NCBI GenBank assembly: GCA_027064305.1 | Contig: JAMOPY010000049.1 | Coordinates: 1 to 27,227 of the forward strand | Origin: Methanobacteriota archaeon | Lineage (GTDB): Archaea > JAADCQ01 > Methanopyri > Methanopyrales > Methanopyraceae | Length of the DNA: 27,227 nucleotides | Direction of reading: 5' to 3' | The notes under the pieces: model-generated | What the model saw: only the letters and a program-made list of their open reading frames with translations | The model's database searches: none | What the model was told of the DNA's origin: nothing | Made by a program: the position numbers and the translations under genes | Part shown: piece after piece, positions 174 to 14,995 of the stretch | How the letters are laid out: every line of letters starts with the position of its first letter | How positions within the stretch are numbered: position 1 is the stretch's first letter

Positions 174-805
174 AGGTGATGCTGCTGTACCCGGAGCGCG
201 AGCGGTGCAAGGTGCTGACGGCGTTCCGGGAGCTGCCGGAGGGACTGAAGCCCGAGGCCCGGGTCACGCTGGTCAGCTGCCGGAGGCGGCTGGAAGGGCC
301 GAGGACGATCGTCTCCGGCGGTACGGTGGTGATCACGCTACCGGCCGGGGGCGACCTGACCTCCGTAAAGCTGTCGTTGGCCCACGAGCTGGCGCACGCG
401 CTTCAGGCCGAGCGGGGCGTGCTGCCGGGCCGCGTGCCGCCCCTCCGCGCCCTGTCGCTGCCGCTCGAGTGCGGGGCGGAGGAGCTGGTGCTGAAGTTCA
501 TCCCGGGCTCAGTCGGTCGTAGGGTGGAGATGGGACTGCGGCTGGTTCGGAGGATGGTGCCCCGGGACTTCCTGACGGATCTGGAGCGGTCGCTGGTGCT
601 GGAGCCCGTGCGTATGGCCGTGGAGCGGCTGGGTGAGCGGGTGTCGGTGCCCCGGGTGGAGCCCGTGAGCCGCCGGGCGCGTGAGGTGCGGGAGGAGCTG
701 GTGCGGGCGGCGCGCGAGGTGGACCCGTGGGACCCGCTGTCCGTGCGCCGGTACGTGGAGGACGCGCGGGCGATCGTCAGCGCGGCCCTTCGGCGAGGCG
801 CTTGA
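167..805 (+). CDS. Hypothetical protein with HExxH zinc-metallopeptidase motif
   Basis: 212 aa ORF overlapping the hisF stop. Contains LAHELAHAL followed by ECGAE (possible third zinc ligand). Codon usage matches neighbours. Confidence 0.6.
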
Positions 806-1748
806 GCCGCTCGATGCGCTTCTCCGTGGGCGGGTGCGTGCTGAACAGTCGCGCCAGCATCCCGCCGCGGAACGGGTTGCGGATCCAGAGGTGGGCGGTG
901 GCCGCCTCCGCCGTCGTCTCCGCCCGGATCGGGGCGCCTCTCACGGCCTCCTCGATCTTGGCCAGGGCCCGCGCGAGCCCGAGCGGATCCCCGGTCAGGC
1001 GCGCGCTCCCCTCGTCCGCGAGGTACTCGCGCGTGCGGCTGATAGCGGCCACGATCACGGTGACGATGATGGAGGTGACGAAGCCGAGCAGGATCAGCGT
1101 CAGCCAGTCCTCGTCGGAGTCCAGGGCCGCGTTGATGAACGGGTCCAGCGCGTAGGAGAGCGTCGTGCCGATCGCGGCCGCGATCGTCATGATCAACGTA
1201 TCCCGGTTCCGCACGTGCGAGACCTCGTGCCCGAGCACGCCTCGGATCTCGCGGTCGTCCAGCAGCCTCAGCAGTCCCTCCGTGACCCCGATCACCGGGC
1301 GGGACCGGCGGCCCACGGCGAAGGCGTTGGGTAGGGCACCCAGGTCGGTCTCCTCGGGCACGACCACGAGCCTGGGTCGTTCGATCCCGGCCCGGGCCGC
1401 CAGCTCGTCGACGAGCTCCCGAACCCGGAGTAGCCGGTCGGACAGTTCGGGCCTCAGCGCCCGGAACTCCTCCTCGCTCACCGCCCCCATGCTCAGCAGC
1501 ACGAGCTTGTCGCTTGTCAGGTACGAGATGGCCGCCCAGGTCAGCCCCACCGCGGCCCCGACGAGCACGCTCTTGGTCAGGAAAGCGGTGACTCCCGCCA
1601 GGACGGAGAAGAGCAGTCCCATCAGGCCGAGGGTTCGGAGCACGATGAAGTGGCTTCGATCGCCCAGCCTGCCGATCGCCAGGAGGGCCAGTGAGGCGCC
1701 CGCGAGCGGGATCAGGGCCTTCAGCGCCGTGGGCCACGCGCTCATCAT
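777..1748 (-). CDS. htpX: HtpX-family (M48) membrane zinc metalloprotease
   Basis: TM segments, [56 protein letters not shown]. Confidence 0.93.
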   Translation of the reverse strand: MMSAWPTALKALIPLAGASLALLAIGRLGDRSHFIVLRTLGLMGLLFSVLAGVTAFLTKSVLVGAAVGLTWAAISYLTSDKLVLLSMGAVSEEEFRALRPELSDRLLRVRELVDELAARAGIERPRLVVVPEETDLGALPNAFAVGRRSRPVIGVTEGLLRLLDDREIRGVLGHEVSHVRNRDTLIMTIAAAIGTTLSYALDPFINAALDSDEDWLTLILLGFVTSIIVTVIVAAISRTREYLADEGSARLTGDPLGLARALAKIEEAVRGAPIRAETTAEAATAHLWIRNPFRGGMLARLFSTHPPTEKRIERLKRLAEGPR

Positions 1749-1757
1749 GGGTCCCTC

Positions 1758-2897
1758 CTAGAACCCCCTCTCGTGGACGATCCGTCCCGGGAACGTCCCG
1801 GCCCTCGTCACGTAGACCACGTCGTACCTCTCATAGCTTTTCCGTAGTCGGATCACGTCCCTTCTCCCCAACCGCACCCCGATGGACCGCACGATCGGGG
1901 GTCCCTCGCCCTCCTCCCCCACCTTGACCACGCGGATCACGTGGTCGGGCGGATCCTCCGGGGGCGCCCCGGTGGTGGCCAGCAGGGACTCCCGTCCCGG
2001 GGTGAGGGTCGGGTACGCGTCCAGCTCCTCCGCGAGCAGCGTCGATAGGCGGGCCTTGCGCACGGCCGGGTCCTGCTCGATGATGTAGGCGACGCGGCCC
2101 GGTTTCGGGGATCTCCGGGGAGTCTCCGGGTCTCCCTCGAGGACCGCGCGCGTCTCGGACACGATCGCGGCGGTTCCGTCGATCAGGTTCGTCCAGCACA
2201 CCGCGCGCACCTCCCGGGCCCGGCTGAACACCGCGGTGCCGGGTCGGGCCGGGGTCGCCGGGGGCACCTCGATCAGGTGCGGCAGACCGTCGAGGAGTTC
2301 GCGGAGCTCGGTGGCCGGGGGACTCGTCTCCCCGGGCCGTCGGGCGCCGCGCCGGCTCGGGTCCGCGTGGGCGACGTCCGCATCGGGTGATATCCGGGTC
2401 GCGTCGTCCTCAACGACCCGGACGTCCTTGGGCGCGTGAAGGCGGGCGTTCGTGCGCAGGGCGCGGGCTCGGGACCCCTCGAGCTCGACGGAGGTGACGT
2501 GGTAGTGCCGAGAGAGAGCGAGGGTGTCGCCACCGATGCCAGCGCAGAGGTCGAGGCACTCCCGGCCGCCCGCTCGATCCGACAGGAATCGGGCCTTGGC
2601 GCGCGCCACGTGCTCGCCGGTGAGCTCCTCGGCGGCCCGCACGTCGGGGCACGCTAGCGGGGCCCACTCCTCCACCTTGGCGGCCACCTTGGTGTGGATG
2701 GTCAGCAGCGCGGTGATGAGCGGGTCGGTGCCGACGTTGGGGTCTCGCCGGAGGAGCTCGCCCGGGTTCCGGCAGCCGGTGTAGGCGAGGGCGACGGCGG
2801 CCTCGCGCGGCGGGAGGCGTCGGGGGAGCTCGCTCGAGTCCTCCGACCGTTCCAGCTCGAGCTTGATCCGTTCCCAGTCCAGGTCGAGGGTCTTCAC
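1758..2897 (-). CDS. Class I SAM-dependent methyltransferase (probable RNA methyltransferase, THUMP-like C-terminal region)
   Basis: AEELTGEHVARAKA, motif I CLDLCAGIGGDTLAL, VELE, and ADPSRR at the motif IV position. Confidence 0.75.
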   Translation of the reverse strand: MKTLDLDWERIKLELERSEDSSELPRRLPPREAAVALAYTGCRNPGELLRRDPNVGTDPLITALLTIHTKVAAKVEEWAPLACPDVRAAEELTGEHVARAKARFLSDRAGGRECLDLCAGIGGDTLALSRHYHVTSVELEGSRARALRTNARLHAPKDVRVVEDDATRISPDADVAHADPSRRGARRPGETSPPATELRELLDGLPHLIEVPPATPARPGTAVFSRAREVRAVCWTNLIDGTAAIVSETRAVLEGDPETPRRSPKPGRVAYIIEQDPAVRKARLSTLLAEELDAYPTLTPGRESLLATTGAPPEDPPDHVIRVVKVGEEGEGPPIVRSIGVRLGRRDVIRLRKSYERYDVVYVTRAGTFPGRIVHERGF

Positions 2898-3604
2898 AGG
2901 ATGCCCAGCTCCCTCGGGTCCGTCTCGTGGGGCTCGACGCCGAGCTTTCTGGCGATCCGGATCAGCGGCTTGAACCGTCCCACCTCCTCGGGCGCGTGGG
3001 CGTCGGAGCCGAAGGTGATGGGGGCGCCCACCCGGACGGCGATCTGGTACAGGGTGAAGTCCCGCGGGAGGTGGCGGGCGTTCAGCTCCAGGCCGACGTT
3101 GTGGTCGGCCGCGGCGTGGGCGAGTTCCTCGGCCTCCCGGGCGGTGATGCGGTGGCCGAGTTCCTCCAGTATCCAGACCGGGTGGGCGATGATGTGCACC
3201 TCACCGCGCTCGATGCAGCGGAGGGTGGATTGGATGATGACCCGACGCACCTCCTCCGTCCCGACCGGGTTAGGGGCGAGGAGGTGCGGGTGGTGCACGG
3301 CGCCCAGGACGAGGTCGGCCTGCTCGAGCATCGCCGGGGTGGCGTCGATCTCGCCGGTGGGGGAGACGATGTTGGACTCGATCCCGACGTAGACCTTCAC
3401 CGAGAGCTGTCGTTCCGCCTCCTTCGCCTCGGAGCGGAGGCGTCGGAAGGAGCGGTCGGTGAGCCCCTCCGGTGAGGCGGGCCCGTGGTCGGTGAGCGCC
3501 ACCGCCTCGAGGCCTCTTTCCTCGGCGGCGGCCGCGTTCTCGAACGGGGTGCCGTGGCCGTCGGAGTAGACGGTGTGCGTGTGCAGGTCGTACCGGAGCC
3601 TCAA
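2894..3604 (-). CDS. PHP-domain phosphoesterase (histidinol phosphatase/YcdX-like)
   Basis: DLHTHTVYSDG, LTDH, GIE, GAVH, IIAHP, LELN, FGSDAH metal-binding motifs. Confidence 0.9.
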   Translation of the reverse strand: MRLRYDLHTHTVYSDGHGTPFENAAAAEERGLEAVALTDHGPASPEGLTDRSFRRLRSEAKEAERQLSVKVYVGIESNIVSPTGEIDATPAMLEQADLVLGAVHHPHLLAPNPVGTEEVRRVIIQSTLRCIERGEVHIIAHPVWILEELGHRITAREAEELAHAAADHNVGLELNARHLPRDFTLYQIAVRVGAPITFGSDAHAPEEVGRFKPLIRIARKLGVEPHETDPRELGIL

Positions 3605-3618
3605 CGCCGGGGGTCCCG

Positions 3619-4782
3619 TTACTTCAGCGCTCTCAGCCGGACCTCCGGCTCCAGCGTCCTCGGCTCGGCCGCGACGATCGCCGCGCCCTTGGCGACCACC
3701 GTCATCGGGTCGTCCGCCAGCTCGGCCGGGATGTCCGTCTCCTCCTCGATGCGCGCCTGCATGCCCGGCATCAGGGACGTGCCGCCCACCATGACCGTGT
3801 TGTCGTACACGCCCGGGATCAGCTCCGCGGGCAGCCGGTCCAGGATCCTTCGGATGGCGCGGATGATCTCCTGCACGACGGGCTCGGCGGCCTTGGCCAC
3901 CAGCTCCGAGTCGATCGTGATCTCCTTGGGCTTGTTCGTCTCGACGTCCTTGCCCACGACCTCGATCTCCTTGTCCTCGAAGTCCTCGGTCTCGGAGAAC
4001 ACGCGACCCACCTCGATCTTGGCCCGCTCGGCCTCGTGGATGCCGATCCGGACCCCGTACTCCTCCTCGACGAGCTCGACGATGTTCTGGTCGATGTCGT
4101 CGCCACCCACGCGCATGGTCTCCTGGTCCGTGATGCCGCCCAGCGAGATGACCGCGATGTCGGTGGATCCGGCGCCGATGTCGATCACCATCGTGCCCGT
4201 GGGCTCGGCGATGGGTAGGCCGGCGCCGATGGCCGCCGCGAGGGCCTCCTGGATGATGATCACGTTGTCCTCCTCGATCCCGACCTCGACGGTCGCCTCC
4301 TTGATCGCGCGGCGCTCCACCTCGGAGGCGTCACCCGGGACGCCCACGGCGACCCGCTCGATCTCCTCCGGGTTGTTGTTCGAACCGACCTCGATCGCGT
4401 ACTGGACGATGAACTTGGCGTACTCCATGGACTCGATGACTCCGTGCCGGAGGGGTCGGACGGCCACGATGTCCTCCGGGGTGCGGCCGAGCATCTTGCG
4501 GGCTTCCTCACCGATGGCCAGCACCTTGTTCGTGCCCTTCTTGACGGCCACCACGGAGGGGAACTGTTTGACCTGGAACTCCTCCTCCGAGGGGCGCGCC
4601 ACCACCGTGTTCATGGTGCCCAGGTCGATGCCGAGGGCCGCGTAATCGCCGTAGATCTCGACCTCTTCCTCCCTCTCCAACTCCTCGGAGATGGACTCCT
4701 CCTCGCGCTCCTCGGTCTCCTCGCCGCGCTCCTCCTCTTCCTCCTCACCCTCCTCGCGCTTCTTCCTCCTCCAGAACGGCAA
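3619..4782 (-). CDS. mreB: MreB/Mbl-like actin-family ATPase (rod shape-determining protein)
   Basis: Phosphate-1 GIDLGTMNT, RPLRHGVI, VERRAI, connect-1 EALAAAIGAGLP, phosphate-2 MVIDIGAGSTD, GGDDID, AERAKIEVG, adenosine VGGTSL, connect-2 VAKGA. Acidic N-terminal extension. Confidence 0.93.
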   Translation of the reverse strand: MPFWRRKKREEGEEEEEERGEETEEREEESISEELEREEEVEIYGDYAALGIDLGTMNTVVARPSEEEFQVKQFPSVVAVKKGTNKVLAIGEEARKMLGRTPEDIVAVRPLRHGVIESMEYAKFIVQYAIEVGSNNNPEEIERVAVGVPGDASEVERRAIKEATVEVGIEEDNVIIIQEALAAAIGAGLPIAEPTGTMVIDIGAGSTDIAVISLGGITDQETMRVGGDDIDQNIVELVEEEYGVRIGIHEAERAKIEVGRVFSETEDFEDKEIEVVGKDVETNKPKEITIDSELVAKAAEPVVQEIIRAIRRILDRLPAELIPGVYDNTVMVGGTSLMPGMQARIEEETDIPAELADDPMTVVAKGAAIVAAEPRTLEPEVRLRALK

Positions 4783-4794
4783 GGTCGAGCTCCC

Positions 4795-5415
4795 CTACCC
4801 CTCCTCCTCGGTGCCCGGGATCTCGTGGACGTAAACGCCACGATCGTTCGCGATCTTTCGAAACTCCTCGGGATCCTCCACCTGCAGGACCATAATGCTG
4901 AACGTCTCCTCCTCGACCCCCAAAAACACGCTTATAATGTTCCTAATGGGGCGAGGCATCACGTCGAAGAGGATCATCGAGGTCTCGATGAACGCGGGCC
5001 CTCTCCTCCTCCTGTTAACCTTAATCTTCATCCGGCTCCTGGCCCGCGACATCACGCTCTTGAGGACGGAGTCCGGCCCGGCAACGACGTAATTCCCATC
5101 ACCTTCCTCGAAAACCAGGGACAGCAGCTCGGACTTGGTCGCCACGCGGCTGATTAACGAGGTGATCTCGGAGGTGGACCGTATTAGGGTGACGCCGTAC
5201 CTCCACACGGTAACCCCGTACTTGGTCTTAACCTCACGATTATCCACGATTTCAAATTTTGAAAATCTCATCGTCTCATAGAGGGCCTCTTCGATATCCT
5301 CAGGATCCCCTAGTATGGCGCAGTACGAGTTCATTTCCTCGTCCATTTTCTCATATGATACGGCGGCGGACCTTAGCAGTTTAACTCTGGTTTCCGGGTC
5401 CTCCGTAGCCTTCAA
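4795..5415 (-). CDS. Hypothetical protein (206 aa) between oapC and mreB
   Basis: Fills the gap in the operon, 4-bp overlap with oapC, GGAGGGG RBS before TTG. No recognisable motif. Low GC. Confidence 0.75.
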   Translation of the reverse strand: MKATEDPETRVKLLRSAAVSYEKMDEEMNSYCAILGDPEDIEEALYETMRFSKFEIVDNREVKTKYGVTVWRYGVTLIRSTSEITSLISRVATKSELLSLVFEEGDGNYVVAGPDSVLKSVMSRARSRMKIKVNRRRRGPAFIETSMILFDVMPRPIRNIISVFLGVEEETFSIMVLQVEDPEEFRKIANDRGVYVHEIPGTEEEG

Positions 5416-5675
5416 CCCCTCCGTCCCCGCCCGTCCGCGGGTGGTAATAGGATAAAGTATCTACCAGATTTGTACACGGTGATGACGTCGTCTATGTTAT
5501 CAATGTTAATCTTGTACACCCCATCCCGCTCCACCACTATGGCGGCAGGGTCATGATTATCGTCCTCAGGAATGCGCTGAAACAACCTACATCCGCAGTT
5601 CGGGCACCCTCTTTTAATCAATTCATCGCTCAGCTTATCGAACGTTCTACCGCATTTAAAGCACCGGTGTGGCAT
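5412..5675 (-). CDS. oapC: Zn-ribbon protein, DUF2072 / OapC (ArvC) family
   Basis: MPHRCFKCGRTF...LIKRGCPNCGCRLF and C-terminal GVYKINI...SGRYFILLP. Start moved to ATG 5675 (RBS GGTGACGGAGG). Confidence 0.85.
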   Translation of the reverse strand: MPHRCFKCGRTFDKLSDELIKRGCPNCGCRLFQRIPEDDNHDPAAIVVERDGVYKINIDNIDDVITVYKSGRYFILLPPADGRGRRG

Positions 5676-5682
5676 GCCTCCG

Positions 5683-6054
5683 TCACCCAAGTTTTAGCGT
5701 GATGAAATCCTCTCCCTTCTCCAGATCCTTGAGCACGTTCGCCGGCGAGATGACGGTCATTCCCTCCTCGGATCGCTTCCCCAGGAGCCTTTTCATCAGT
5801 CCTCTACCGGATCGTCGGGCCGCCCGCTTCGGCGGGACCACGTAGATGTCGATCCCCGTGAACTCCTCCAGGTCCACCTCCTCCATTGTGCGCTGAATGA
5901 TCTCGGTGAGTAGATCCGGGTTGAGTTGGCCCTCGAAAACGATCACCGCACCGTCCTTCGCCCGGCGTATCACGTACTCGATGAGCTCCGACCTGGACAT
6001 GCCCTTTAGCGCCGATCGGGCCATGACCTCGACCTTGATCTCTCCCTCCGTCAA
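5683..6054 (-). CDS. oapB: DUF2073 / OapB (ArvB) family protein
   Basis: MSRSELIEYVI...GAVIVFEGQL...EFTGIDI...GLMKRLLG...MTVISPANVL. Lies between the GTPase and the Zn-ribbon gene, as in the archaeal oapABC triplet. Confidence 0.85.
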   Translation of the reverse strand: MTEGEIKVEVMARSALKGMSRSELIEYVIRRAKDGAVIVFEGQLNPDLLTEIIQRTMEEVDLEEFTGIDIYVVPPKRAARRSGRGLMKRLLGKRSEEGMTVISPANVLKDLEKGEDFITLKLG

Positions 6055-6677
6055 CCCGTGAACTCCCTGATCATCGCCTTGTAGAGGTCTTCCATGTTCT
6101 CTCCGGTCTTGGCGGAAACCTTAACGACGGGGTAGTCCGAGAAGGCGTCCTCCACGGCGCCCGGGTCGGCCTCTTTTAAGTCTATTTTGTTCGCCACCAC
6201 GATGAACGGTACCTCGTTCGCCTCCAGGTTTCCAATCAGCGTCACGTTCACCTGGGTGAGCGGCTCCCGGGTGGAGTCGATCACCACGAGCGCGCCGTCG
6301 ATGGTCTTGAGCAGTCGGATGGCCTCCACCACGCCCTTGGTGGCCTCCTTGGCCCGCTGCTTGGCCTCCTTCACGTCCAACCCGTACCTGAGGAACTTCC
6401 GGTAGTCCACCTTCGTGGTGACGCCCGGCGTGTCCACGATTTCGAAGTCGACTCGGGACGATCCCAGCTCGATGCGCACCCGGCGCCGGACGGAGCGGCG
6501 CGTCTCGTGCGGGATCTCGGAGACCTCGCCGAACCGCTCCGCGCCCCAGTCCTCCGCGATCCGGTTGGCCAGGGTCGTCTTGCCGACGTTGGGGGCCCCG
6601 TAGATTCCTATTTTAACCTCCCTCCTCGCGGACCTCAGGTAGTCCAGGAGTCGGCTGATGAGGCTCCTGGGCCTCAC
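6051..6677 (-). CDS. oapA: Era-like small GTPase, OapA (ArvA) family
   Basis: G1 GIYGAPNVGKTTLANRI, G2 IPHETRR, G3 DTPG, AKEATKGVVEAI, G4 NKID, G5 VSAKTG. Confidence 0.9.
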   Translation of the reverse strand: MRPRSLISRLLDYLRSARREVKIGIYGAPNVGKTTLANRIAEDWGAERFGEVSEIPHETRRSVRRRVRIELGSSRVDFEIVDTPGVTTKVDYRKFLRYGLDVKEAKQRAKEATKGVVEAIRLLKTIDGALVVIDSTREPLTQVNVTLIGNLEANEVPFIVVANKIDLKEADPGAVEDAFSDYPVVKVSAKTGENMEDLYKAMIREFTG

Positions 6678-6703
6678 GTAACCACCCCGTGGGGGTCGGG
6701 GAC

Positions 6704-7249
6704 GTGGGCGTGGTCAGGTTCGTGAGCCGGGCGATCAGGAGGCCGCTGCGAGTGGGGGCTCCGGCGCCCACGCTGCGTGGAACTGCCAGGTTCATGGTGG
6801 AGGTCACGGGCGTGGGTAGGGGAGACCTGGTGGTGGACGCGGGCACGGGAACGGGCGTGGTGGCGTTGGAGGCGGCCCGGCTCGGGTGCGAGGTGGTCGC
6901 CGTGGATCTGGACGAGGAGCTGCTGAAGGTGGCTCGGGAGCGGGCCCGGGAGGAGGGACTGGACGATCGGATCGAGTTCGTGCGGGCGGACGTTAGGGAG
7001 CTGCCGGACCTGGTGGATCGGGCCGACGCGGTGATCTCCACGGTGCCCATCAAAACGCTTCCCGACCCGGGGCGGGTCTTTGAGGCCTACGCCGAGTCGG
7101 TGCGGCCCGGCGGTCGGGTGGTCCAGCTCACCCACTGGCCGGGGCGCTTTCTGCGGGCGGTCAAGGGCGTACCGCTCCGGGTGGAGCGGAGGTACCTGCG
7201 GTGGGTTCACCTGGTGCCGGGATTCATCTTCGTTTGTCGTCGGGAGTGA
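6704..7249 (+). CDS. pmtA: Phospholipid N-methyltransferase-like protein (Sinorhizobium/Agrobacterium PmtA type)
   Basis: N-terminal RRPLRVGAPAPT...ARFM, motif I VVDAGTGTGVV, DAVISTVP, GGRVVQLTH, C-terminal WVHLVPGFIFVCRR. Directly upstream of psd-pssA. Start GTG 6704 (RBS GGGGGT); 6689 is the alternative. Confidence 0.7.
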   Translation: MGVVRFVSRAIRRPLRVGAPAPTLRGTARFMVEVTGVGRGDLVVDAGTGTGVVALEAARLGCEVVAVDLDEELLKVARERAREEGLDDRIEFVRADVRELPDLVDRADAVISTVPIKTLPDPGRVFEAYAESVRPGGRVVQLTHWPGRFLRAVKGVPLRVERRYLRWVHLVPGFIFVCRRE

Positions 7250-7255
7250 CGGGGT

Positions 7256-7948
7256 ATGCTGGCGCCCGGCTGGCACCGGTTCGTGCTGCCGCCCGCGGTG
7301 CTCGGTGCGATCACCGCCCCCGTGTGCAAGCCCGCCTCCGCGCTGTTCCTGGCCGCGGCCGGCTTCCTGGCCTTCTTCTTCCGGAACCCCGATCGGGAGC
7401 CGCCGAGCGACCCCAGGTTGATGGTCTCCGCCGCCGACGGTCGGCTCCTGGGTAGGGTCATGCACGTGGGTCCCGGGGACGAGGAGGTGGAGTCCTACCT
7501 GGACGAGCCGGTGATGGTCTCCGTGTTCATGTCCCCGCTGGACGTGCACGTGAACCGGGCGCCGTTCGACGGCGTCGTGCGGGAGGTGAGCCGGGTCCGG
7601 GGGCGCACCGTGCCCGCGTTCAGGTCCTCCTCGGCGACGGAGAATCACCGGGCGATCCTGCTGTTCGAGGGCAGGGTGCCGTTCCTTGTGCGGCTGGTGG
7701 TGGGAGCGGTCGCGCGTCGGATCGACCTGTACGTGGAGGAGGGAGACCGGGTGCGGCGCGGTCAGCCGATAGGGATGATAAGACTGGGTTCCCGGGTGGA
7801 CGTGGCCGTTCCGCGGGCTCACGTGGACCGGGTCCTGGTCTCGGTGGGTGACCGGGTCAGGGCGGGTGAGACGCCGATAATCAGGGTAAAAGAGGGGAGG
7901 AGGAGTGGACGAGCGGATCGAGAGGTGGAAGATCACCAGCCTGCTTAA
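7256..7948 (+). CDS. psd: Archaetidylserine/phosphatidylserine decarboxylase proenzyme
   Basis: FFFRNPDR, VSAADG, SVFMSPLDVHVNRAP, ENHR, GAVARRI, self-cleavage motif GMIRLGSRVD, VRAGET. Confidence 0.93.
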   Translation: MLAPGWHRFVLPPAVLGAITAPVCKPASALFLAAAGFLAFFFRNPDREPPSDPRLMVSAADGRLLGRVMHVGPGDEEVESYLDEPVMVSVFMSPLDVHVNRAPFDGVVREVSRVRGRTVPAFRSSSATENHRAILLFEGRVPFLVRLVVGAVARRIDLYVEEGDRVRRGQPIGMIRLGSRVDVAVPRAHVDRVLVSVGDRVRAGETPIIRVKEGRRSGRADREVEDHQPA

Positions 7949-8642
7949 CGCCCCGTCGGTGGTGTCCACGCTCAACGTGGTGTTCGGCTCCATCTCCGTG
8001 CTCGCGTCCCTGTCCGGGTGGCCCGGGCTCTCCTCCCGGATGATCCTGCTCTCCTTCATCGCCGACTCGATCGACGGGTTCGTGGCGCGGAGGAAGCGCA
8101 AGACGTCCGAGTTCGGTAAGCAGCTGGACTCGCTCGCGGACGTGATCTCGTTCGCCGTGGCCCCGGCCTCGCTGCTCCTGGTCGGGAAGATGGCGCCCGC
8201 GCTCGTGGCCTACCCGCTGGCCGTGGTCATGGTGTGCTGCGGGGCCCTCCGCCTGGCCCGCTTTAACGCGATGTGCGCCGAGGGTTACTCCCCGGACGAG
8301 TACTACTTGGGACTGCCGGTGCCCTGGGTGGGCACCGCCACCTCGTGCCTGTACTTCCTGACCACGGACCTGCCCTCGCGGGTCTGGCTGGTGGTCAACC
8401 CGGTGGTGCTGGCGGGCGCGTCGGCGCTCATGGTGTCCACCGTTCGGTTCCCGAGCTTTAAGCGCCCTCACCCGGCGGTGATCACCATCGGTGGCGCCTC
8501 GATGCTGGCCCTCCTGTTCAGTCCCCTGTTCTGCCCGGGCTGGTTAAGGGGGAAGTTGGAGGTGGCCTCCTCCGGAATGATCCTGGGAATTCTCTCGTAC
8601 TACGCGCTGTCGGGGGTGATAGGGTGCGTGCGGCGGTGGTAG
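7905..8642 (+). CDS. pssA: Archaetidylserine synthase (CDP-alcohol phosphatidyltransferase, PssA subclass II)
   Basis: DSIDGFVAR...SEFGKQLDSLADVISFAVAPA, GALRLARFN, YLGLPVP, LMVSTVRFPSFK. Multiple TM helices. Confidence 0.93.
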   Translation: MDERIERWKITSLLNAPSVVSTLNVVFGSISVLASLSGWPGLSSRMILLSFIADSIDGFVARRKRKTSEFGKQLDSLADVISFAVAPASLLLVGKMAPALVAYPLAVVMVCCGALRLARFNAMCAEGYSPDEYYLGLPVPWVGTATSCLYFLTTDLPSRVWLVVNPVVLAGASALMVSTVRFPSFKRPHPAVITIGGASMLALLFSPLFCPGWLRGKLEVASSGMILGILSYYALSGVIGCVRRW

Positions 8643-9721
8643 CGTCGACGGCGGCCCTGGAGATCCCGGAGGAGCGTCGTCACGCCATCGTGGGCGCGCT
8701 GGTGCTGGGCCTGGTCATCCTGGGGTCCGCCGTCGGCGCCTGGTACTTCCTGTACTACCGACCGTACATGGAACAGCTGCAGAAGCTCCGGCAGCAGAAG
8801 CTCGCGGAGCTGAACAGGTACTTCACGGGGCCGCTGGCCACGTCCCCGATGCGGGCGAAGCTGCAGCAGCAGATCCTGTCCGCGGAGACGATAGAGCAGC
8901 TGCAGGCCATCGACGTGGTGGGAGCGGCCACGGTGGAGTGGCAGAAGTACCAGATCTCGCAGATCAAGAGGAACCAGAAGAACGGCCGGGTCGAGCTGAT
9001 CACGCCCCAAGGGCCGCAGCTGATGTCGGTCAAGGACGCGATCGCGAAGGTGAAGTCCATGTCCGCGGACGATCTGATGAAACTGGTGGTCAAGAGGCCG
9101 GAGACCGTGCTGATCGCCGTCTGGGCGGACCCCAACAAGACCGGGGCCATCCGGGTCGGGGACAGGGTCACGCTGTCGACCGTGGACTGGGTGATCAAGG
9201 CGGCGCTGCACAAGCGGGGTGAGACCAAGGTTCCCAGGGAGCTGCTGAAGGGACCGAACCAAATCAGCGGTGGGATCGTGCGGTACATACTGCTGGTCCG
9301 AGGCGGTTTGGCGGGATTTAACACGAAGATCAACCTGGAGTCGGCCGCCAAGGCGGCGGAGCTGTACCGATCCGGCAGCGTCGACATCGCGGCCCGCAAG
9401 ATGGTCGTGCCGGCCGCGGCGCTCGGCCTGGTCGGGAGAGGAGGGGCCGGCGGGGCCGCCGGCGGCGGAGGAACCCTACAGCGGGCTCAGGAACCCCTGG
9501 TCGGCATCGTCGATCTGTCGGATTTCATCAAGGCGATGGCTCTGGCGAAGGCGAAGAGGGGAGGGTACGTCAAGCAGCTCATGTCGCTGGAGCAGCGGGA
9601 GGGGATCCGCGCGTGGGACAAGCTGATCGTGGTCGTGGAGATCCCCAAGGATGCCGTGACTCCGAAGATCCTCATAGCGGCCGCGGTCCGGGGAGGCTTC
9701 TGGATCATGCCGGAGCGGTGA
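8624..9721 (+). CDS. Single-pass membrane protein, DUF515-like
   Basis: N-terminal TM (IVGALVLGLVILGSAVGAWYFLYY), then RPY...KLAELNRYFTGPLA helical segment resembling DUF515 of methanogens/Thermococcales. RBS GGGGGTGA upstream. Confidence 0.65.
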   Translation: MRAAVVASTAALEIPEERRHAIVGALVLGLVILGSAVGAWYFLYYRPYMEQLQKLRQQKLAELNRYFTGPLATSPMRAKLQQQILSAETIEQLQAIDVVGAATVEWQKYQISQIKRNQKNGRVELITPQGPQLMSVKDAIAKVKSMSADDLMKLVVKRPETVLIAVWADPNKTGAIRVGDRVTLSTVDWVIKAALHKRGETKVPRELLKGPNQISGGIVRYILLVRGGLAGFNTKINLESAAKAAELYRSGSVDIAARKMVVPAAALGLVGRGGAGGAAGGGGTLQRAQEPLVGIVDLSDFIKAMALAKAKRGGYVKQLMSLEQREGIRAWDKLIVVVEIPKDAVTPKILIAAAVRGGFWIMPER

Positions 9722-9736
9722 AACCCCTTAAAAAAT
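9720..9736 (+). promoter_or_regulatory. Putative archaeal BRE/TATA promoter for the surface protein-sortase pair
   Basis: GAAACCCC-TTAAAAAA in a 51-bp intergenic gap, TATA-like box at 9728-9735, about 37 bp upstream of TTG 9773, which has a GGGGG RBS. Confidence 0.6.
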
Positions 9737-9772
9737 GAGGCACCAAAACGCTGGACTGGGTCTACGGGGGAA

Positions 9773-10750
9773 TTGAAGTTGCGACACCTGGGATCGATCG
9801 TGCCGGCGCTGGTGGTCGGCGTGGCGGTCCTAGCCGGGGTCTGGGTGGCGGAGGAGTCGGGACAGGTGAAGCTCGGTCAGATGCCCACCGGATCCCCCGC
9901 CGCCGGGGCTCAGGCGGCCGGTAGCGCGGCCTCAGGGGCCGCGAGGACCGCCGCCGGGGCGGCCCAGTCCGTGGGAGCGGGAGGGGCCGGTGCCGGCGGT
10001 GGCGACCCGTTCGTGGTCAGCGAGGCGATCATCAGGGTCCAGGCGGTCGGCAAGGGGGCCAAGAAGGTCAGCAAGGTCGAGGAGATACCCAACTCCAGAG
10101 TGCGGGAGTGCAAGGTGTCGGGTGATCGGGCGGAGGCGGTCATCGAGGCGCACGACGTTCCCATCAGCGGGCTGCCGGTGAGCGTGAACCCGGGATGGCC
10201 GTTCAAGATGAGCGACTGCCGGTACGAGAGGATCGAGGTCACGTTCAAGCTCAAGGCCAACACGGACAACGCCGAGGAAACGGACTTCGCGGGGCTCATC
10301 GCGCTGAGCGATGGTCGGGTGACGTCGGCCGACCCGCGCCCGGACCGCACGGAGGACGGGACCGCGATCTGGAGGGTGGCCATCCGGGACGGCAAGTTCG
10401 TCATCAACGGCCGTGAGGACGGGGAGTTCCCGCGGTTCCGGTACGTGCTGGAGTACGGTCGGGGCGCCGGGGCCGGTGGAGTCGGTGGAACCGGTGGTGC
10501 CGTCGGTGGTGGTCAGGCCGGTGGTGGAGCCGGGGCCGGTGGTCCGGGAGCCGGGGGCGGCGCGGGTGCCCCCGGACCGGGGGCCGGTGCCGGCGGTGGC
10601 GCCGGTGGGGTCAAGATGGTGAGGGGAGGCGCCGGTACCGGGATGCCGGTGGGCAAGTACCGGACCGGTGAGTCGCTGTTCCTGATCACGGCGGCCGTCA
10701 TCGGGGCGCTGGTGGGAGCGTACCTGGTGTACAGGGGCCTCCGGCGGTGA
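9773..10750 (+). CDS. Secreted Gly/Ala-rich cell-surface protein with C-terminal sortase-type sorting signal
   Basis: N-terminal signal/TM, beta-rich central domain of about 145 aa, Gly-rich linker, then KYRTG + hydrophobic segment (SLFLITAAVIGALVGAYLVY) + RGLRR tail. Stop overlaps the sortase start. Confidence 0.75.
   Translation: MKLRHLGSIVPALVVGVAVLAGVWVAEESGQVKLGQMPTGSPAAGAQAAGSAASGAARTAAGAAQSVGAGGAGAGGGDPFVVSEAIIRVQAVGKGAKKVSKVEEIPNSRVRECKVSGDRAEAVIEAHDVPISGLPVSVNPGWPFKMSDCRYERIEVTFKLKANTDNAEETDFAGLIALSDGRVTSADPRPDRTEDGTAIWRVAIRDGKFVINGREDGEFPRFRYVLEYGRGAGAGGVGGTGGAVGGGQAGGGAGAGGPGAGGGAGAPGPGAGAGGGAGGVKMVRGGAGTGMPVGKYRTGESLFLITAAVIGALVGAYLVYRGLRR
10457..10642 (+). repeat. Low-complexity Gly/Ala codon repeat (GGGGCCGGT/GCCGGTGG-type units) encoding a GAGAGG linker
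   Basis: Translated GRGAGAGGVGGTGGAVGGGQAGGGAGAGGPGAGGGAGAPGPGAGAGGGAGG. Imperfect short repeats, no spacers. Confidence 0.8.
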
Positions 10751-11232
10751 GGCTCCGGTACCTGGTCCCGGGGCTGCTGCTTCTGGCCCCATCCACCGTT
10801 TATTTGGGCCAGCTGGCGGCGAGGGAGCTGGCGTATCGGCTGTACCACGGTTCCGTGTCCGTGCCCGGGTGCGAGCTGGTTATCCCGAAGCTGCACCTGC
10901 GGGAGCCGATCAACGCGATCTCGCCGGACTATGGGGTGTACTACGATCCGGAGACGCCGGAGCCCGGGGAGCGCGGGATCACGATCCTGTACGGGCACCG
11001 GACGCTGTTCGGGTCCCCGTTCAGGCGGTTAAACGAGCTGGAGCGGGGCGACGAGGTGATCGTGTACTGGTTCGGGCGGAAGTACGTGTACCGGGTGTAC
11101 GGGAAGGAGGTGGTGAGCCCGGACGCGCGGGTGGACCCGTACGGGGTGGGCCGGGACGAGCTCTGGCTGGTCACGTGCGCGCCCTTGTGGTCGTCGAGCG
11201 AGCGGTTGGTGGTGAAGTGCGCCCGGGGTTAG
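10747..11232 (+). CDS. Sortase (class D/E-like)
   Basis: N-terminal hydrophobic anchor, LVIPKL, ILYGHRT...PFRRLNELERGD, YVYRVY, LWLVTC, ERLVV. His/Cys/Arg catalytic triad intact. Confidence 0.92.
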   Translation: MRLRYLVPGLLLLAPSTVYLGQLAARELAYRLYHGSVSVPGCELVIPKLHLREPINAISPDYGVYYDPETPEPGERGITILYGHRTLFGSPFRRLNELERGDEVIVYWFGRKYVYRVYGKEVVSPDARVDPYGVGRDELWLVTCAPLWSSSERLVVKCARG

Positions 11233-13481
11233 GCGGCGTCGCGCAGGATCTTGCGGACGAGGCGCTCGAGGACCTTGTTCCGGTGGGCCTCGGCGAAGGA
11301 GATGGAACCGGCGGTCTCGTGGCCTCCCCCGTCGATGGCGGCCTCCGGGAGCTCCTCCCGCAGCTCCTCGACGATCTCGTTGAGGTTGATGCCCAGGTTC
11401 TCGGTGGCGCGGATCACGGCGAAGTCGGGCCCGTACGCGATGGTAACGACCTTGGCGTCCTCACCCTCTTCCTCCACCTTGAGGTCGTGGACGAGGCCGC
11501 AGGTCTTGCCGGGGCCCGGGTACTCGAACTTGCGGGCGTAGCGCTCGACGTCCACCGTGACGACCTTGATGCCGTTGGACTCGTACTCCTTCACGCCCGA
11601 GAGGGCGGCCTGGAGCTGTCGCTCGCAGGCGCGCTTGTGCTGCTCGTACAGGTTCTCGACGAGCCGGCGGTGTCGGACGTCGTTCCCGGTCGTGCCGAGG
11701 ACGTCGTTCATGAGGTGACGGCCCGGGGTGTGACGGAGCTGGAAGGCCTGGTAGTCCACGCTGGCGGCGATCTTCTGCAGCCATTCGCGGTCGTATCCGG
11801 ACTCCTCCGCGATCTCCAGGTACTGTTCGGCCTCCTTGGACTCGGCGTGGTCGCCGACGCAGGCGACGGCGGGCAGGTGGCGGATGCGGTCCTCGACGTC
11901 CGGGTTGATGAGCCGGGCGATCTCGGTGGCGAGGACGCCGGCCGGGATGTTCTTGCCGTCCCCGTCCGCGGCGTAGGGGTTGACGTGCACGTCCACGTGG
12001 TCGTCGATGGGGAACTTTCGCAGCCCGTCCGCGCTCTCGCCGGTGGGTTCGCCGGGGTAGTGGTGGTCGATGACGATCACGTCGACCCCGTAGGCGCGCA
12101 TCTCCTCGATGGCCGGGACGTCCTCCTCCGTGCAGCCGATGTCCAGGAGGATGAGGAGCGGGACCTGGTGGCCGTAACGGTGGACGTCCTCGAGCGCGTG
12201 GTTGAGGTCCCGGGACGCGTCCTCCATCGTGTAGATGGGGGCCTTGTTCGGGAAGCGCTTGTAGAAGTGGTACTCCGCCTCGGGGTCGGGGTTGTTCTCG
12301 CGGAGGATGGGCAGTATGGCCTCCTCGAGGGCGATGCCCCCGGAGATTCCGTCGGCGTCGGCGTGGTGTCGGATCAGGATGGGGCGGCCCTCGAGCACGG
12401 CCCGCTTGATCATTCTGGCGGCCTCGCGCATCCGCGGCCAGAGCCGCTCCAGGACCTCGCTCTCAACCATCGGGGTGAGGTCCTCGGGCGGCTCGGCCTC
12501 GCGCTCGAGGGCCTCGTCGATCGCGCGCTTGATCTTCACCTTCTCCGTGCCGATGAGCTTCTCCATGTCCAGGATCTCGACCTGCAGCTGGCCGTCGTGG
12601 GTGGTGACCTCGCCGACCACCCGCACGTAGTCGCCCGCCTCGATGTCCGGGTAGGCCCGGATGCCCGGCCCCTCGAAGGCGGCCATCCAGATGCTGCCGG
12701 TCTCGTCGCGGAGGGTGAAGACGGTGGGGCCGGGCGTCTGCTGGACGTGGATGATCTTGCCCTTGAGTAGGACGGTCTCGCCGACCTTGGACTCGTCGAT
12801 GTCGCGCACGTACGTGCGCTCGAGGTCCTTCTCCACGACCTCCTCCTCGTACTTCTCGGGCCGCGGGTCGATCCCCTCGATCGTGAAGTCGATCTCGCCC
12901 TCCTCGGGCCGCACGTCGATGGCCTTCACGACGACCTCCTGGTCGATGGAGAAGTCCTGCGGCTCCTTGTCGCCCATGTCGCGCTTGTGGAGGAGCCCGA
13001 GGGTGCGGTCGTTCAGCTGGATGAACACGCCGTACTTCTCCACGCGGGCGACGCGGCCCTTGTACAGCTCGCCCACCTCGACGTCCTCGTACCCGCAGGC
13101 TGGGGACAGGACCTTGACCTTGGGGCGCTTCTTCCGGCGGATCTCCTTGATCTTCTCCCGGCACTCCTCGCACAGGTCCTCCTCGGCGTTCGGGTCCAGC
13201 TCCTTGCCGCACTCCCGGCAGACGACGATGTGGCCGGTGCCCCCGCACCGGTCGCACTCCTCGTAGACCGGGATCACGCCCTTGCCCTGGCACTTGGGGC
13301 ACGGAACCTCGCGGGACCCGGCCAGGTCGTACCCTTCGATCGCGTGCTGGGAGGCGCCCTTGAAGTGCTCGCTGATGTCCACGTCCTCCACGTAGCCGGT
13401 ACCCTGGCACTCGGGGCACTCGCGCTCTCCGGCCTTGATCTTACCCTTTCCATCGCACTTCGGGCACTTCTTCCTCGGCAA
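11229..13481 (-). CDS. Archaea-specific RecJ-like DHH exonuclease with DnaJ-type Zn fingers, S1 and OB domains (HAN/COG1107-like)
   Basis: Four CxxCxGxG repeats, S1 (VEKYGVFIQL...GLLH), OB fold (QQTPGPTVFTLRDETG), RHHADADG, LLDIG, VIDHH, DHHA1 GGGHETAG. Confidence 0.9.
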   Translation of the reverse strand: MPRKKCPKCDGKGKIKAGERECPECQGTGYVEDVDISEHFKGASQHAIEGYDLAGSREVPCPKCQGKGVIPVYEECDRCGGTGHIVVCRECGKELDPNAEEDLCEECREKIKEIRRKKRPKVKVLSPACGYEDVEVGELYKGRVARVEKYGVFIQLNDRTLGLLHKRDMGDKEPQDFSIDQEVVVKAIDVRPEEGEIDFTIEGIDPRPEKYEEEVVEKDLERTYVRDIDESKVGETVLLKGKIIHVQQTPGPTVFTLRDETGSIWMAAFEGPGIRAYPDIEAGDYVRVVGEVTTHDGQLQVEILDMEKLIGTEKVKIKRAIDEALEREAEPPEDLTPMVESEVLERLWPRMREAARMIKRAVLEGRPILIRHHADADGISGGIALEEAILPILRENNPDPEAEYHFYKRFPNKAPIYTMEDASRDLNHALEDVHRYGHQVPLLILLDIGCTEEDVPAIEEMRAYGVDVIVIDHHYPGEPTGESADGLRKFPIDDHVDVHVNPYAADGDGKNIPAGVLATEIARLINPDVEDRIRHLPAVACVGDHAESKEAEQYLEIAEESGYDREWLQKIAASVDYQAFQLRHTPGRHLMNDVLGTTGNDVRHRRLVENLYEQHKRACERQLQAALSGVKEYESNGIKVVTVDVERYARKFEYPGPGKTCGLVHDLKVEEEGEDAKVVTIAYGPDFAVIRATENLGINLNEIVEELREELPEAAIDGGGHETAGSISFAEAHRNKVLERLVRKILRDAA

Positions 13482-13499: not shown

Positions 13500-14687
13500 T
13501 CATGAGGAGTAGGCGGTGACGACCTTCTCGACGGCCCGGACCACGTCCTCAAGGTCCTCGCGGGAGAGCCCGGGGTGCACGGGGATCGACAGGACGGTAC
13601 GGGCCGCGAGCTCGGAGTTGGGGAGGCTCGCGGTGTGGTACCCGCGCTTGAGGTACACGGGCTGCCGGTGGAGGGGCCTGGGGTAGTGGACGGCGCAGTC
13701 GACGCCCTCCGCCCGGAGGGCCTCCGCGAACTCGTCCCGGGTGCACTCGAGCGCGTCCGGGTCGAGGCGGATGGTGAACTGGTGGTAAACGTGTTTTGCC
13801 CAGGACCGCTCGCGGGGGAGCCGGATCTCGGGCTCTAGGTCGCTCAGCTCCCGGATGTAGAACCGGGCGTTCTTCCGGCGGCGCCGGTTGAGCTCGTCCA
13901 GCCGTTTGAGCTGCTCCAGCCCGATCGCCGCGGCGATGTCGGTCATCCGGTAGTTGTAGCCCAGCTCCACGTGATCGTACCGCTCGCGCTCCCCGTGGGA
14001 GCGGAGCATCGCGGCGGCCTCCGCCAGGTCCTCGTCGTCCGTCGTGATCGCCCCGCCCTCGCCCGTGGTCATGTTCTTCGTCGGGTAGAAGCTGAAGCAG
14101 CCCGCGTCGCCCAGGGCGCCGACCCGGTCCCCGCGGTACTCGGCCCCGTGCGCCTGGGCCGCGTCCTCGATCACGAGGAGGTCGTACTCCTCCGCGAGCT
14201 CGAGGATGGGTCGCATGTCGGCCGGGTGACCGTACAGGTGCACGGGGATCACGGCGACGCGGCGCGGGGTGAGCCGCCGCTCCCGCTCCAGGCTCCGGAG
14301 GAGCTCCTCCAGGGAGGCGGGGTCCAGGCAGTACGTCTCCAGGTCGATGTCGACGAACGCGACCTCGGCCCCGGCGTGCAGGGCGACGTTGGCCGTCGCG
14401 ATAAACGTAAAAGACGGCACGATCACGAGGTCGCCCGCGCCGATTCCGGCCGCTTCCAGCGCCAGCTGAAGGGCGGTCGTGCCCGAGCTCGTGGCCACGC
14501 AGTGCTCCGTCCCCACGTACTCGGCGAAGCGCCGCTCGAACTCCTCCACGCGCGGTCCCTGCGCCAGCTGTCCGGAGCGCAGCACCTCCTCCACGGCCCG
14601 GATCTCCTCGTCGCCGATCACCGGCTGCGCGATCGGGATACGCTCCTCCCGCACCGGCTTACCGCCCTCGATGGCCAGCCTGGACAA
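13500..14687 (-). CDS. DegT/DnrJ/EryC1/StrS PLP-dependent sugar aminotransferase
   Basis: SSGTTAL, PSFTFIAT, PVHLYG, IEDAAQAHGA, FSFYPTKNMTTGEGG, GYNYRM. Start moved to TTG 14687 (MSRLAIEGG), which removes the overlap with rpl35ae. Confidence 0.92.
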   Translation of the reverse strand: MSRLAIEGGKPVREERIPIAQPVIGDEEIRAVEEVLRSGQLAQGPRVEEFERRFAEYVGTEHCVATSSGTTALQLALEAAGIGAGDLVIVPSFTFIATANVALHAGAEVAFVDIDLETYCLDPASLEELLRSLERERRLTPRRVAVIPVHLYGHPADMRPILELAEEYDLLVIEDAAQAHGAEYRGDRVGALGDAGCFSFYPTKNMTTGEGGAITTDDEDLAEAAAMLRSHGERERYDHVELGYNYRMTDIAAAIGLEQLKRLDELNRRRRKNARFYIRELSDLEPEIRLPRERSWAKHVYHQFTIRLDPDALECTRDEFAEALRAEGVDCAVHYPRPLHRQPVYLKRGYHTASLPNSELAARTVLSIPVHPGLSREDLEDVVRAVEKVVTAYSS

Positions 14688-14713
14688 CCCGCGGCCCCCT
14701 GGGGGTTGGCCCG

Positions 14714-14995
14714 ATGTCGGAGGTGAAGGTGAAGCGCGGCGTGATCGTGAACTACCGAATGGGCAGGCACACGCAGGACCCACGGCAGTGCATAATAGAG
14801 TTTCAGGGTGTGGACAGCAAGTCCGAGGCGGCGCGGCTGATCGGCAAGGAGGTGGTCTGGAGGCACCCGGAGACGGGTACGGAGATCCGGGGCAAGATCG
14901 TGGACACGCACGGGAACAACGGGGCCGTGCGGGCCCGGTTCGAGCGCGGCCTGCCGGGCCAGGCCCTCGGGACCGAGGTGGAGCTGCGCGACTAG
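14714..14995 (+). CDS. rpl35ae: 50S ribosomal protein L35Ae (eL33)
   Basis: GVIVNYRMGRHTQ...GVDSKSEAARLIGKEVVW...GKIVDTHGNNGAVRARFERGLPGQALG. Confidence 0.95.
   Translation: MSEVKVKRGVIVNYRMGRHTQDPRQCIIEFQGVDSKSEAARLIGKEVVWRHPETGTEIRGKIVDTHGNNGAVRARFERGLPGQALGTEVELRD

Follow-up and report, generated by a model that had tools for sequence, protein, structure and literature searches.

A genus-specific arvABC-X-mreB gene row in Methanopyraceae and a conserved upstream partner gene of archaeal MreB

Results

The 27,227-nucleotide (nt) stretch analysed here in full, hereafter the window (contig JAMOPY010000049.1 of a Methanopyraceae genome), carries on its minus strand, from 777 to 6677, a row of eight co-directional reading frames that looks like an operon. 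The row begins with the small GTPase gene arvA (oapA) and its companions arvB (oapB) and arvC (oapC), passes through an uncharacterised gene that we call X and the actin-homologue gene mreB, and continues into genes for a PHP-domain phosphoesterase, a putative methyltransferase and an HtpX-like protease. Coordinates and family matches (Table 1) agree with the preliminary description of this locus for the five genes from arvA to mreB and for their continuation to htpX. Comparison with other archaea reveals two links of different depth: the pair of X and MreB is a deep one, and the link between arv and mreB ends at the border of the genus.

The spacing first given for the row, with 4-bp overlaps or gaps of 12 bp or less, holds from arvA to mreB and fails at the next junction, where 14 nt separate mreB from the PHP gene. 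The start of arvB overlaps the stop of arvA by 4 nt; arvB and arvC overlap by 8 nt if arvC begins at a TTG codon and are 7 nt apart if it begins at the ATG at 5675; arvC and X overlap by 4 nt in the window and are separated by 4 nt in congeners; and 12 nt lie between X and mreB. Further along, the PHP and methyltransferase frames overlap by 4 nt, and a 9-nt gap precedes htpX. At the head of the row, the divergent start codons of arvA and of a second methyltransferase gene, encoding 186 amino acids (aa), are only 11 nt apart (6678-6688), so that each promoter would have to be located within the other gene's coding region, unless the transcripts are leaderless.

In the sister phylum, which is the phylum of genome G007, all 21 mreB loci sampled, from 19 genera, have X immediately 5' of mreB (G, g and L numbers denote genomes, genera and loci). 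The sample comprised ~19 kilobases (kb) around mreB from each of 20 genomes and 11 kb from G007. A single-sequence phmmer search detected X in 18 of the loci, and three more cases, recognised by inspection and alignment, were later confirmed by a profile search. The two frames are usually 1-3 nt apart. Across 201 sister-phylum genomes, searched with a 25-sequence X profile, 182 have both X and MreB, 17 have neither, two have MreB only, and none has X only. The genomes with neither are all 15 of genus g36 together with G128 and G204, and the two with MreB and no X (G220 and G229) are 86-87% complete. Two MreB and two X matches each occur in G124 and G200, every X of G124 adjoining an mreB copy. 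The 206-aa gene, initially treated as a bystander, is thus a conserved partner of archaeal MreB.

The duplicate matches are located at G124:C1 657729-659436 and 1519014-1520721, and on C41 and C91 of G200. Many X matches in genus g31 contain one in-frame TAA or TAG (e.g., G099:C1:2128658-2129296), possibly because the match overruns a start or stop and not because the gene is broken.

What kind of protein is X? No Pfam or NCBIfam family matches it in the window, and no Pfam family is common to the 25 X sequences; an X profile weighted to this genus returned 19 matches among 1.84 billion representatives. Even among genus members, X is only 38-82% identical. An AlphaFold model (pLDDT 81.4) predicts two ferredoxin-like alpha/beta domains after a conserved N-terminal helix. 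Fold searches with this model returned ferredoxin-like, ACT-like, and BMC-like matches (Foldseek TM ~0.2-0.4, VIA Z at most 7.9), which are generic, so that no function is to be drawn from them. The X profile found chance-level matches only among PDB sequences (E 0.007), and a search of the ESM Atlas with X gave no usable match. A predicted complex of MreB and X scored 0.24 and 0.19 against a mark of 0.32, in runs without controls that count neither way. Descent of X from a duplicated ArvB was considered and rejected (profile-to-profile hhalign probability 4%). Based on its gene context, X is a putative MreB accessory factor.

The arv genes show a different distribution. None of arvA, arvB and arvC was found in the 21 sister-phylum mreB loci. 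In that phylum, MreB (E<=1e-40) occurs in 184 of the 201 genomes and in 28 of 29 genera, genus g36 having none (0/15), and ArvB (PF09846) occurs in 108 of the 201. Among the 31 genomes with both proteins encoded on one contig, the closest pair is ~134 kb apart (G072, hand count). Five genera have MreB in every genome and ArvB in none, giving 75 genomes with MreB and without ArvB (g31, 53; g32, 5; g39, 12; g42, 3; g45, 2); conversely, G128 and G204 have ArvB, and MreB was not found in them. A wider sample of 151 archaeal genomes contains ArvB in 68 and MreB (E<=1e-50) in 13, all from this genus or the sister phylum, in line with the expected rarity of MreB in archaea, and 55 of the 68 ArvB-bearing genomes lack MreB. 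Around arvB (1.5 kb on either side), 15 loci from other lineages showed no actin-fold family, in a scan covering 78 of 127 open reading frames (ORFs) of at least 100 aa from 17 loci, with opposite-strand overlaps and two redundant or short loci set aside; the genes that follow arvC in the 15 loci are varied. Co-loss of Arv with MreB, considered for genus g36, which is without MreB, X, and ArvB, was rejected, since five genera with MreB lack ArvB too.

Within the genus, a full block of 12 genes is kept in all four other assessable genomes (G001-G004), with DUF515, pssA, psd, and the 186-aa methyltransferase gene on one strand and the eight genes from arvA to htpX on the other. In G005, mreB and arvB are on different short contigs, and the arrangement is not assessable. 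The synteny survey envisaged in the preliminary description thus found the arv-mreB linkage in the congeners and none of it at the sister-phylum mreB loci. A PHP gene after mreB was likewise seen in the genus and not in the sister-phylum loci, and the 379-aa methyltransferase gene is kept in the genus. The GC content at third codon positions (GC3) dips in the middle of the row: in the window it is 0.79 for arvB, 0.58 for arvC, and 0.74 for X, compared with 0.86-0.97 for genes outside arvA-X, and at the G002 locus (L002) it is 0.40 for arvC and 0.38 for X, compared with 0.53-0.80 for the other measured genes outside arvB, arvC, and X. The dip over arvB-arvC-X is common to three species (window 4795-6054, L002 3855-5110, L004 1548-2834) and may reflect low expression, AT-rich internal signals, or an old foreign origin.

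RNA data were available for the congener G002 as four RNA-seq runs kept as contigs, all of one study and drawn from two samples at most. Contigs at L002 3728-4893, 3933-5173, 4309-5330, and 4864-5224 bridge the arvA/arvB, arvB/arvC, arvC/X, and X/mreB junctions, consistent with the RNA linkage foreseen for the row, and single contigs span arvC/X and X/mreB in three of the four runs. Since depth is about zero in the bins from L002 1102 to 2202, the RNA cover is not plain DNA carry-over.

ArvA of the window has the GTPase motifs GAPNVGKT (G1), DTPG (G3), NKID (G4), and SAK (G5), is 53% identical to ArvA of G007, and has a best N-terminal 11-mer with a calculated hydrophobic moment of 0.81, against a protein-wide 95th percentile of 0.69. 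The arvABC genes are single-copy in this genome, where other GTPase matches are only weak. The DUF2073/OapB gene lies immediately 3' of the GTPase gene, and the DUF2072/OapC zinc-ribbon gene lies within two genes downstream. The PF09845 match in ArvC covers the N-terminal zinc ribbon only (residues 7-51, profile positions 1-44 of 133). ArvC would be 92 aa long from the TTG start and 87 aa from the ATG at 5675, which is the more likely start because GGAGG precedes it and the genus conserves an N-terminal MPHxC.

The OapABC triplet has been renamed ArvABC and controls extracellular-vesicle formation in Haloferax volcanii (PMC10927574). According to the accessible portion of that report, deletion of oapA lowers vesicle formation 2.94-fold and its overexpression raises it 3.5-fold, deletion of arvB lowers it 3.13-fold, and deletion of arvC raises it 1.65-fold; the oapA mutant forms fewer rods, and the fold predicted for ArvB is SepF-like. 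In the model proposed by its authors, ArvA is a membrane-binding switch of the Arf type, for which ArvB may serve as exchange factor and ArvC as activating protein (PMC10927574). The statement that the triplet lacks a clear mechanism is therefore outdated. A literature search linking Methanopyrus with DUF2073, DUF2072, ArvB, or 'archaeal vesiculating' returned only this report, in whose accessible portion Methanopyrus is not mentioned, and a search for 'arva' and 'mreb' together returned nothing on archaea among the matches listed.

MreB of the window scores above the cut-offs of PF06723 (339.9 bits, cut-off 27) and NF010539 (301.3 bits, cut-off 293) and below that of TIGR00904 (280.7, cut-off 365.75), and is 58-65% identical to sister-phylum MreB. 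Its N-terminal extension of 47 residues starts with MPFWRRKKR and continues into a Glu-rich stretch, and 23 of the first 48 residues are acidic; the extension may tether MreB to the membrane or to a partner. Sister-phylum MreB starts with a short hydrophobic tip, MxxFG, followed by charged residues. MreC (PF04085), MreD (PF04093), and RodA/FtsW (PF01098) were found in none of five whole genomes (G000, G001, G002, G007, and G040) in a search in which bacterial control genomes matched. The lack of mreC, mreD, and rodA, first remarked at the locus, thus extends to whole genomes, and the partners of MreB must be archaeal.

The surroundings of the pair are rich in envelope genes. In 20 of the 21 sister-phylum loci, X-mreB has a DUF515 gene beside it, and psd, pssA, and DUF515 were all detected in 13. 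X-mreB of the sister phylum is preceded by an intergenic region of its own, several hundred nt long, which is replaced in the genus of the window. At the G007 locus (L005), the psd and X genes are separated by a ~1.5-kb gap (3260-4796) that contains only short odd ORFs; Rfam gave no match on L005 or on the window. In the window, a Gly/Ala-rich 325-aa protein with hydrophobic N- and C-terminal segments and no Pfam family is encoded directly before the sortase (9773-11232) and is a possible sortase substrate. The following 750-aa protein (11229-13481) has CxxC zinc-ribbon repeats at its N-terminus together with an S1 domain, an OB fold, and a DHH phosphoesterase domain. At the far end of the row, the 777-1748 protein scores below the cut-off of every NCBIfam HtpX model.

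Table 1. Genes of the row and its surroundings in the window, and the corresponding genes of the congener locus L002
Gene	Coordinates	Strand	Product and family match
arvA (oapA)	6051..6677	-	single-domain small Arf/Era-like GTPase, 208 aa; MMR_HSR1 1.4e-17, Arf 6.6e-6
arvB (oapB, DUF2073)	5683..6054	-	123 aa; PF09846 1.1e-28, 99.6 bits (cut-off 27)
arvC (oapC, DUF2072)	5412..5690	-	zinc-ribbon protein; PF09845 1.7e-9, 38.5 bits (cut-off 23)
X	4795..5415	-	uncharacterised, 206 aa; OG0001176 of PMC11915815
mreB	3619..4782	-	actin-like, 387 aa; PF06723 MreB_Mbl 1.6e-101
PHP gene	2894..3604	-	PHP-domain phosphoesterase, 236 aa; PF02811 1.3e-13
methyltransferase gene	1758..2897	-	379 aa; weak class-I methyltransferase signal, Methyltransf_25 0.0024 (below cut-off)
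htpX	777..1748	-	HtpX-like M48 membrane protease, final gene of row; PF01435 7.6e-33
methyltransferase gene	6689..7249	+	186 aa; Pfam match
psd	7256..7948	+	phosphatidylserine decarboxylase; Pfam match
pssA	7905..8642	+	CDP-alcohol phosphatidyltransferase; Pfam match
DUF515 gene	8624..9721	+	DUF515/CpaB-like protein; PF04415 5.3e-12
sortase gene	10747..11232	+	sortase; PF04203 1.5e-23
aminotransferase gene	13500-14783		DegT-family aminotransferase; family match
arvA, L002	3232-3858
arvB, L002	3855-4217
arvC, L002	4231-4485
X, L002	4490-5110
mreB, L002	5126-6307

Discussion

Our analysis makes it probable, though far from certain, that the row is a lineage-specific operon fusion without functional dependence between Arv and X-MreB. 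We propose that, in this genus only, arvABC, encoding an Arf-like GTPase and two regulators, was placed directly 5' of an older two-gene unit, X-mreB. This unit lies in an envelope-gene neighbourhood found in methanogens with pseudomurein walls, in which psd, pssA, DUF515, and sortase occupy the opposite strand. X may act as an accessory protein of MreB filaments in archaea, with the tightly packed frames yielding X and MreB in step, and could take the place of the absent MreC, MreD, and RodZ. The fusion would give Arv, concerned with membrane remodelling, and X-MreB, concerned with rod shape, a common upstream promoter, and each module would work without the other. The independence of the modules elsewhere, in both directions, argues against an obligatory Arv-MreB machine and still allows a local one; a working coupling of Arv and MreB is possible but unsupported.

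Several points weigh against an operon fusion of independent modules. The lower frequency of rods in the Haloferax oapA knockout (PMC10927574) hints that Arv can affect cell shape. The preservation of the row in the genus may be no more than the general synteny of close relatives and is no proof of selection for the fusion. RNA contigs, here from a single study, cannot establish that there is one transcript, nor on which strand it lies or where it ends. Their summed depth, a measure that cannot rank genes, is lower over mreB than over arvA-X, which could reflect a terminator or an internal promoter and is not used here as evidence. The role given to X comes solely from gene context, its fold matches being generic (Z below 8).

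A different explanation, which we regard as unlikely, is that the adjacency is due to chance: a rearrangement in the ancestor of the genus was never broken since, the two parts kept their own promoters, and read-through is incidental. It would agree with the preservation of the entire 11-kb neighbourhood, in which the arv/X junction is not singled out, with the varied neighbours of arvABC elsewhere, with a GC3 dip in which AT-rich internal signals could reside, and, as a weak observation, with the lower contig depth over mreB. However, with arvC and X overlapping by 4 nt, or standing 4 nt apart in congeners, no intergenic space is left between them, the upstream region that this unit possesses in the sister phylum has been replaced, and single contigs cross arvC/X and X/mreB in most of the RNA-seq runs.

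Slightly less likely still is an integrated machine in which the ArvA switch, itself regulated by ArvB and ArvC, would directly set the site or time of X-MreB assembly, the five genes forming one shape and division system. The tight packing of these genes, with overlaps or gaps of 12 nt or less, their preservation in all five assessable genomes of the genus including that of the window, the bridging of all junctions by RNA contigs, the single copy of arvABC, and, from Haloferax, the scarcer rods and the SepF-like fold predicted for ArvB (PMC10927574) are what such a machine would lead one to expect. Outside the genus it finds no counterpart: linkage is absent from all 21 sister-phylum mreB loci sampled, the genes are at least 134 kb apart in 31 genomes, MreB occurs without ArvB in 75 genomes and ArvB without MreB in 55 of 68, and none of 15 arvB loci from other lineages has an actin-fold neighbour. 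X also shows no profile similarity to ArvB. Of the preliminary proposal that the Oap GTPase is tied to the actin cytoskeleton, the operon-like row kept in the genus and its bridging by RNA contigs stand; a coupling beyond the genus does not, given the phyletic decoupling.

In eukaryotes, Arf and Rho GTPases steer the actin cytoskeleton. By analogy, one may speculate that the ArvA switch and X-MreB form one co-transcribed membrane-shaping machine in this hyperthermophilic genus, with X as the adaptor, which we consider rather improbable. The resemblance would lie in a small GTPase with a presumably amphipathic N-terminus encoded beside an actin-fold protein; the difference is that the linkage here is confined to one genus. 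Were Arv to bind X or MreB in this genus, it would be a rare case of a prokaryotic small GTPase coupled to actin. The confinement of the row to a single genus permits no general claim that a vesicle GTPase is tied to archaeal actin.

To our knowledge, almost nothing is known of the use that the few archaea with MreB make of this actin homologue. X is a concrete candidate for an MreB partner: a family of ~210 residues with no known domain, always just 5' of mreB and lost with mreB. As in the bacterial mreBCD/Rod system, an MreB-family actin, above the Pfam and NF010539 cut-offs, occurs in a wall-bearing rod. Unlike in bacteria, MreC, MreD, and RodA/FtsW are missing from all five genomes searched, and the gene upstream of mreB is an archaeal one, X, whose product would be cytoplasmic and has no bacterial relatives.

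The ArvABC module of the window corresponds to that of Haloferax volcanii (PMC10927574) in gene order, with the GTPase gene followed directly by DUF2073 and then by the zinc-ribbon DUF2072 gene, in the matches to both Pfam families, and in the GTPase motifs and an N-terminal stretch predicted here to be amphipathic. It differs in the short ArvC (87-92 aa), of which only the zinc-ribbon part matches Pfam, and in the extension of the operon into X-mreB-PHP-methyltransferase-htpX.

The neighbourhood of X and mreB has been described before as 'cluster C', a bidirectional cluster specific to pseudomurein archaea, which its authors judge unrelated to wall synthesis (PMC11915815). Its members include OG0001176, the MreB-like OG0000094, the DUF515/CpaB-like OG0001177, sortase E (OG0001178), and an aminotransferase (OG0001210). 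The same report remarks in passing that the MreB gene always follows OG0001176, and its supplementary table gives the two groups consecutive accessions in one genome; the word GTPase does not occur in the accessible portion of its text (PMC11915815). The window has an OG0001176-type gene, X, immediately 5' of mreB and the DUF515/CpaB-like and sortase genes on the opposite strand, and a DegT aminotransferase gene nearby, which is likened to OG0001210 by family name only. In contrast to cluster C as described, this genus has arvABC inserted upstream of X and PHP-methyltransferase-htpX after mreB. OG0001176 is labelled 'coiled coil protein' in PMC11915815, whereas our model of X predicts two ferredoxin-like domains.

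Outside the region that corresponds to the window, the G002 RNA data contain an abundant small RNA of ~68 nt (L002 10574-10642, summed contig depth ~5,000-13,000). Its ends are joined backwards, from 10641-10642 to 10574-10578, which suggests a circular RNA.

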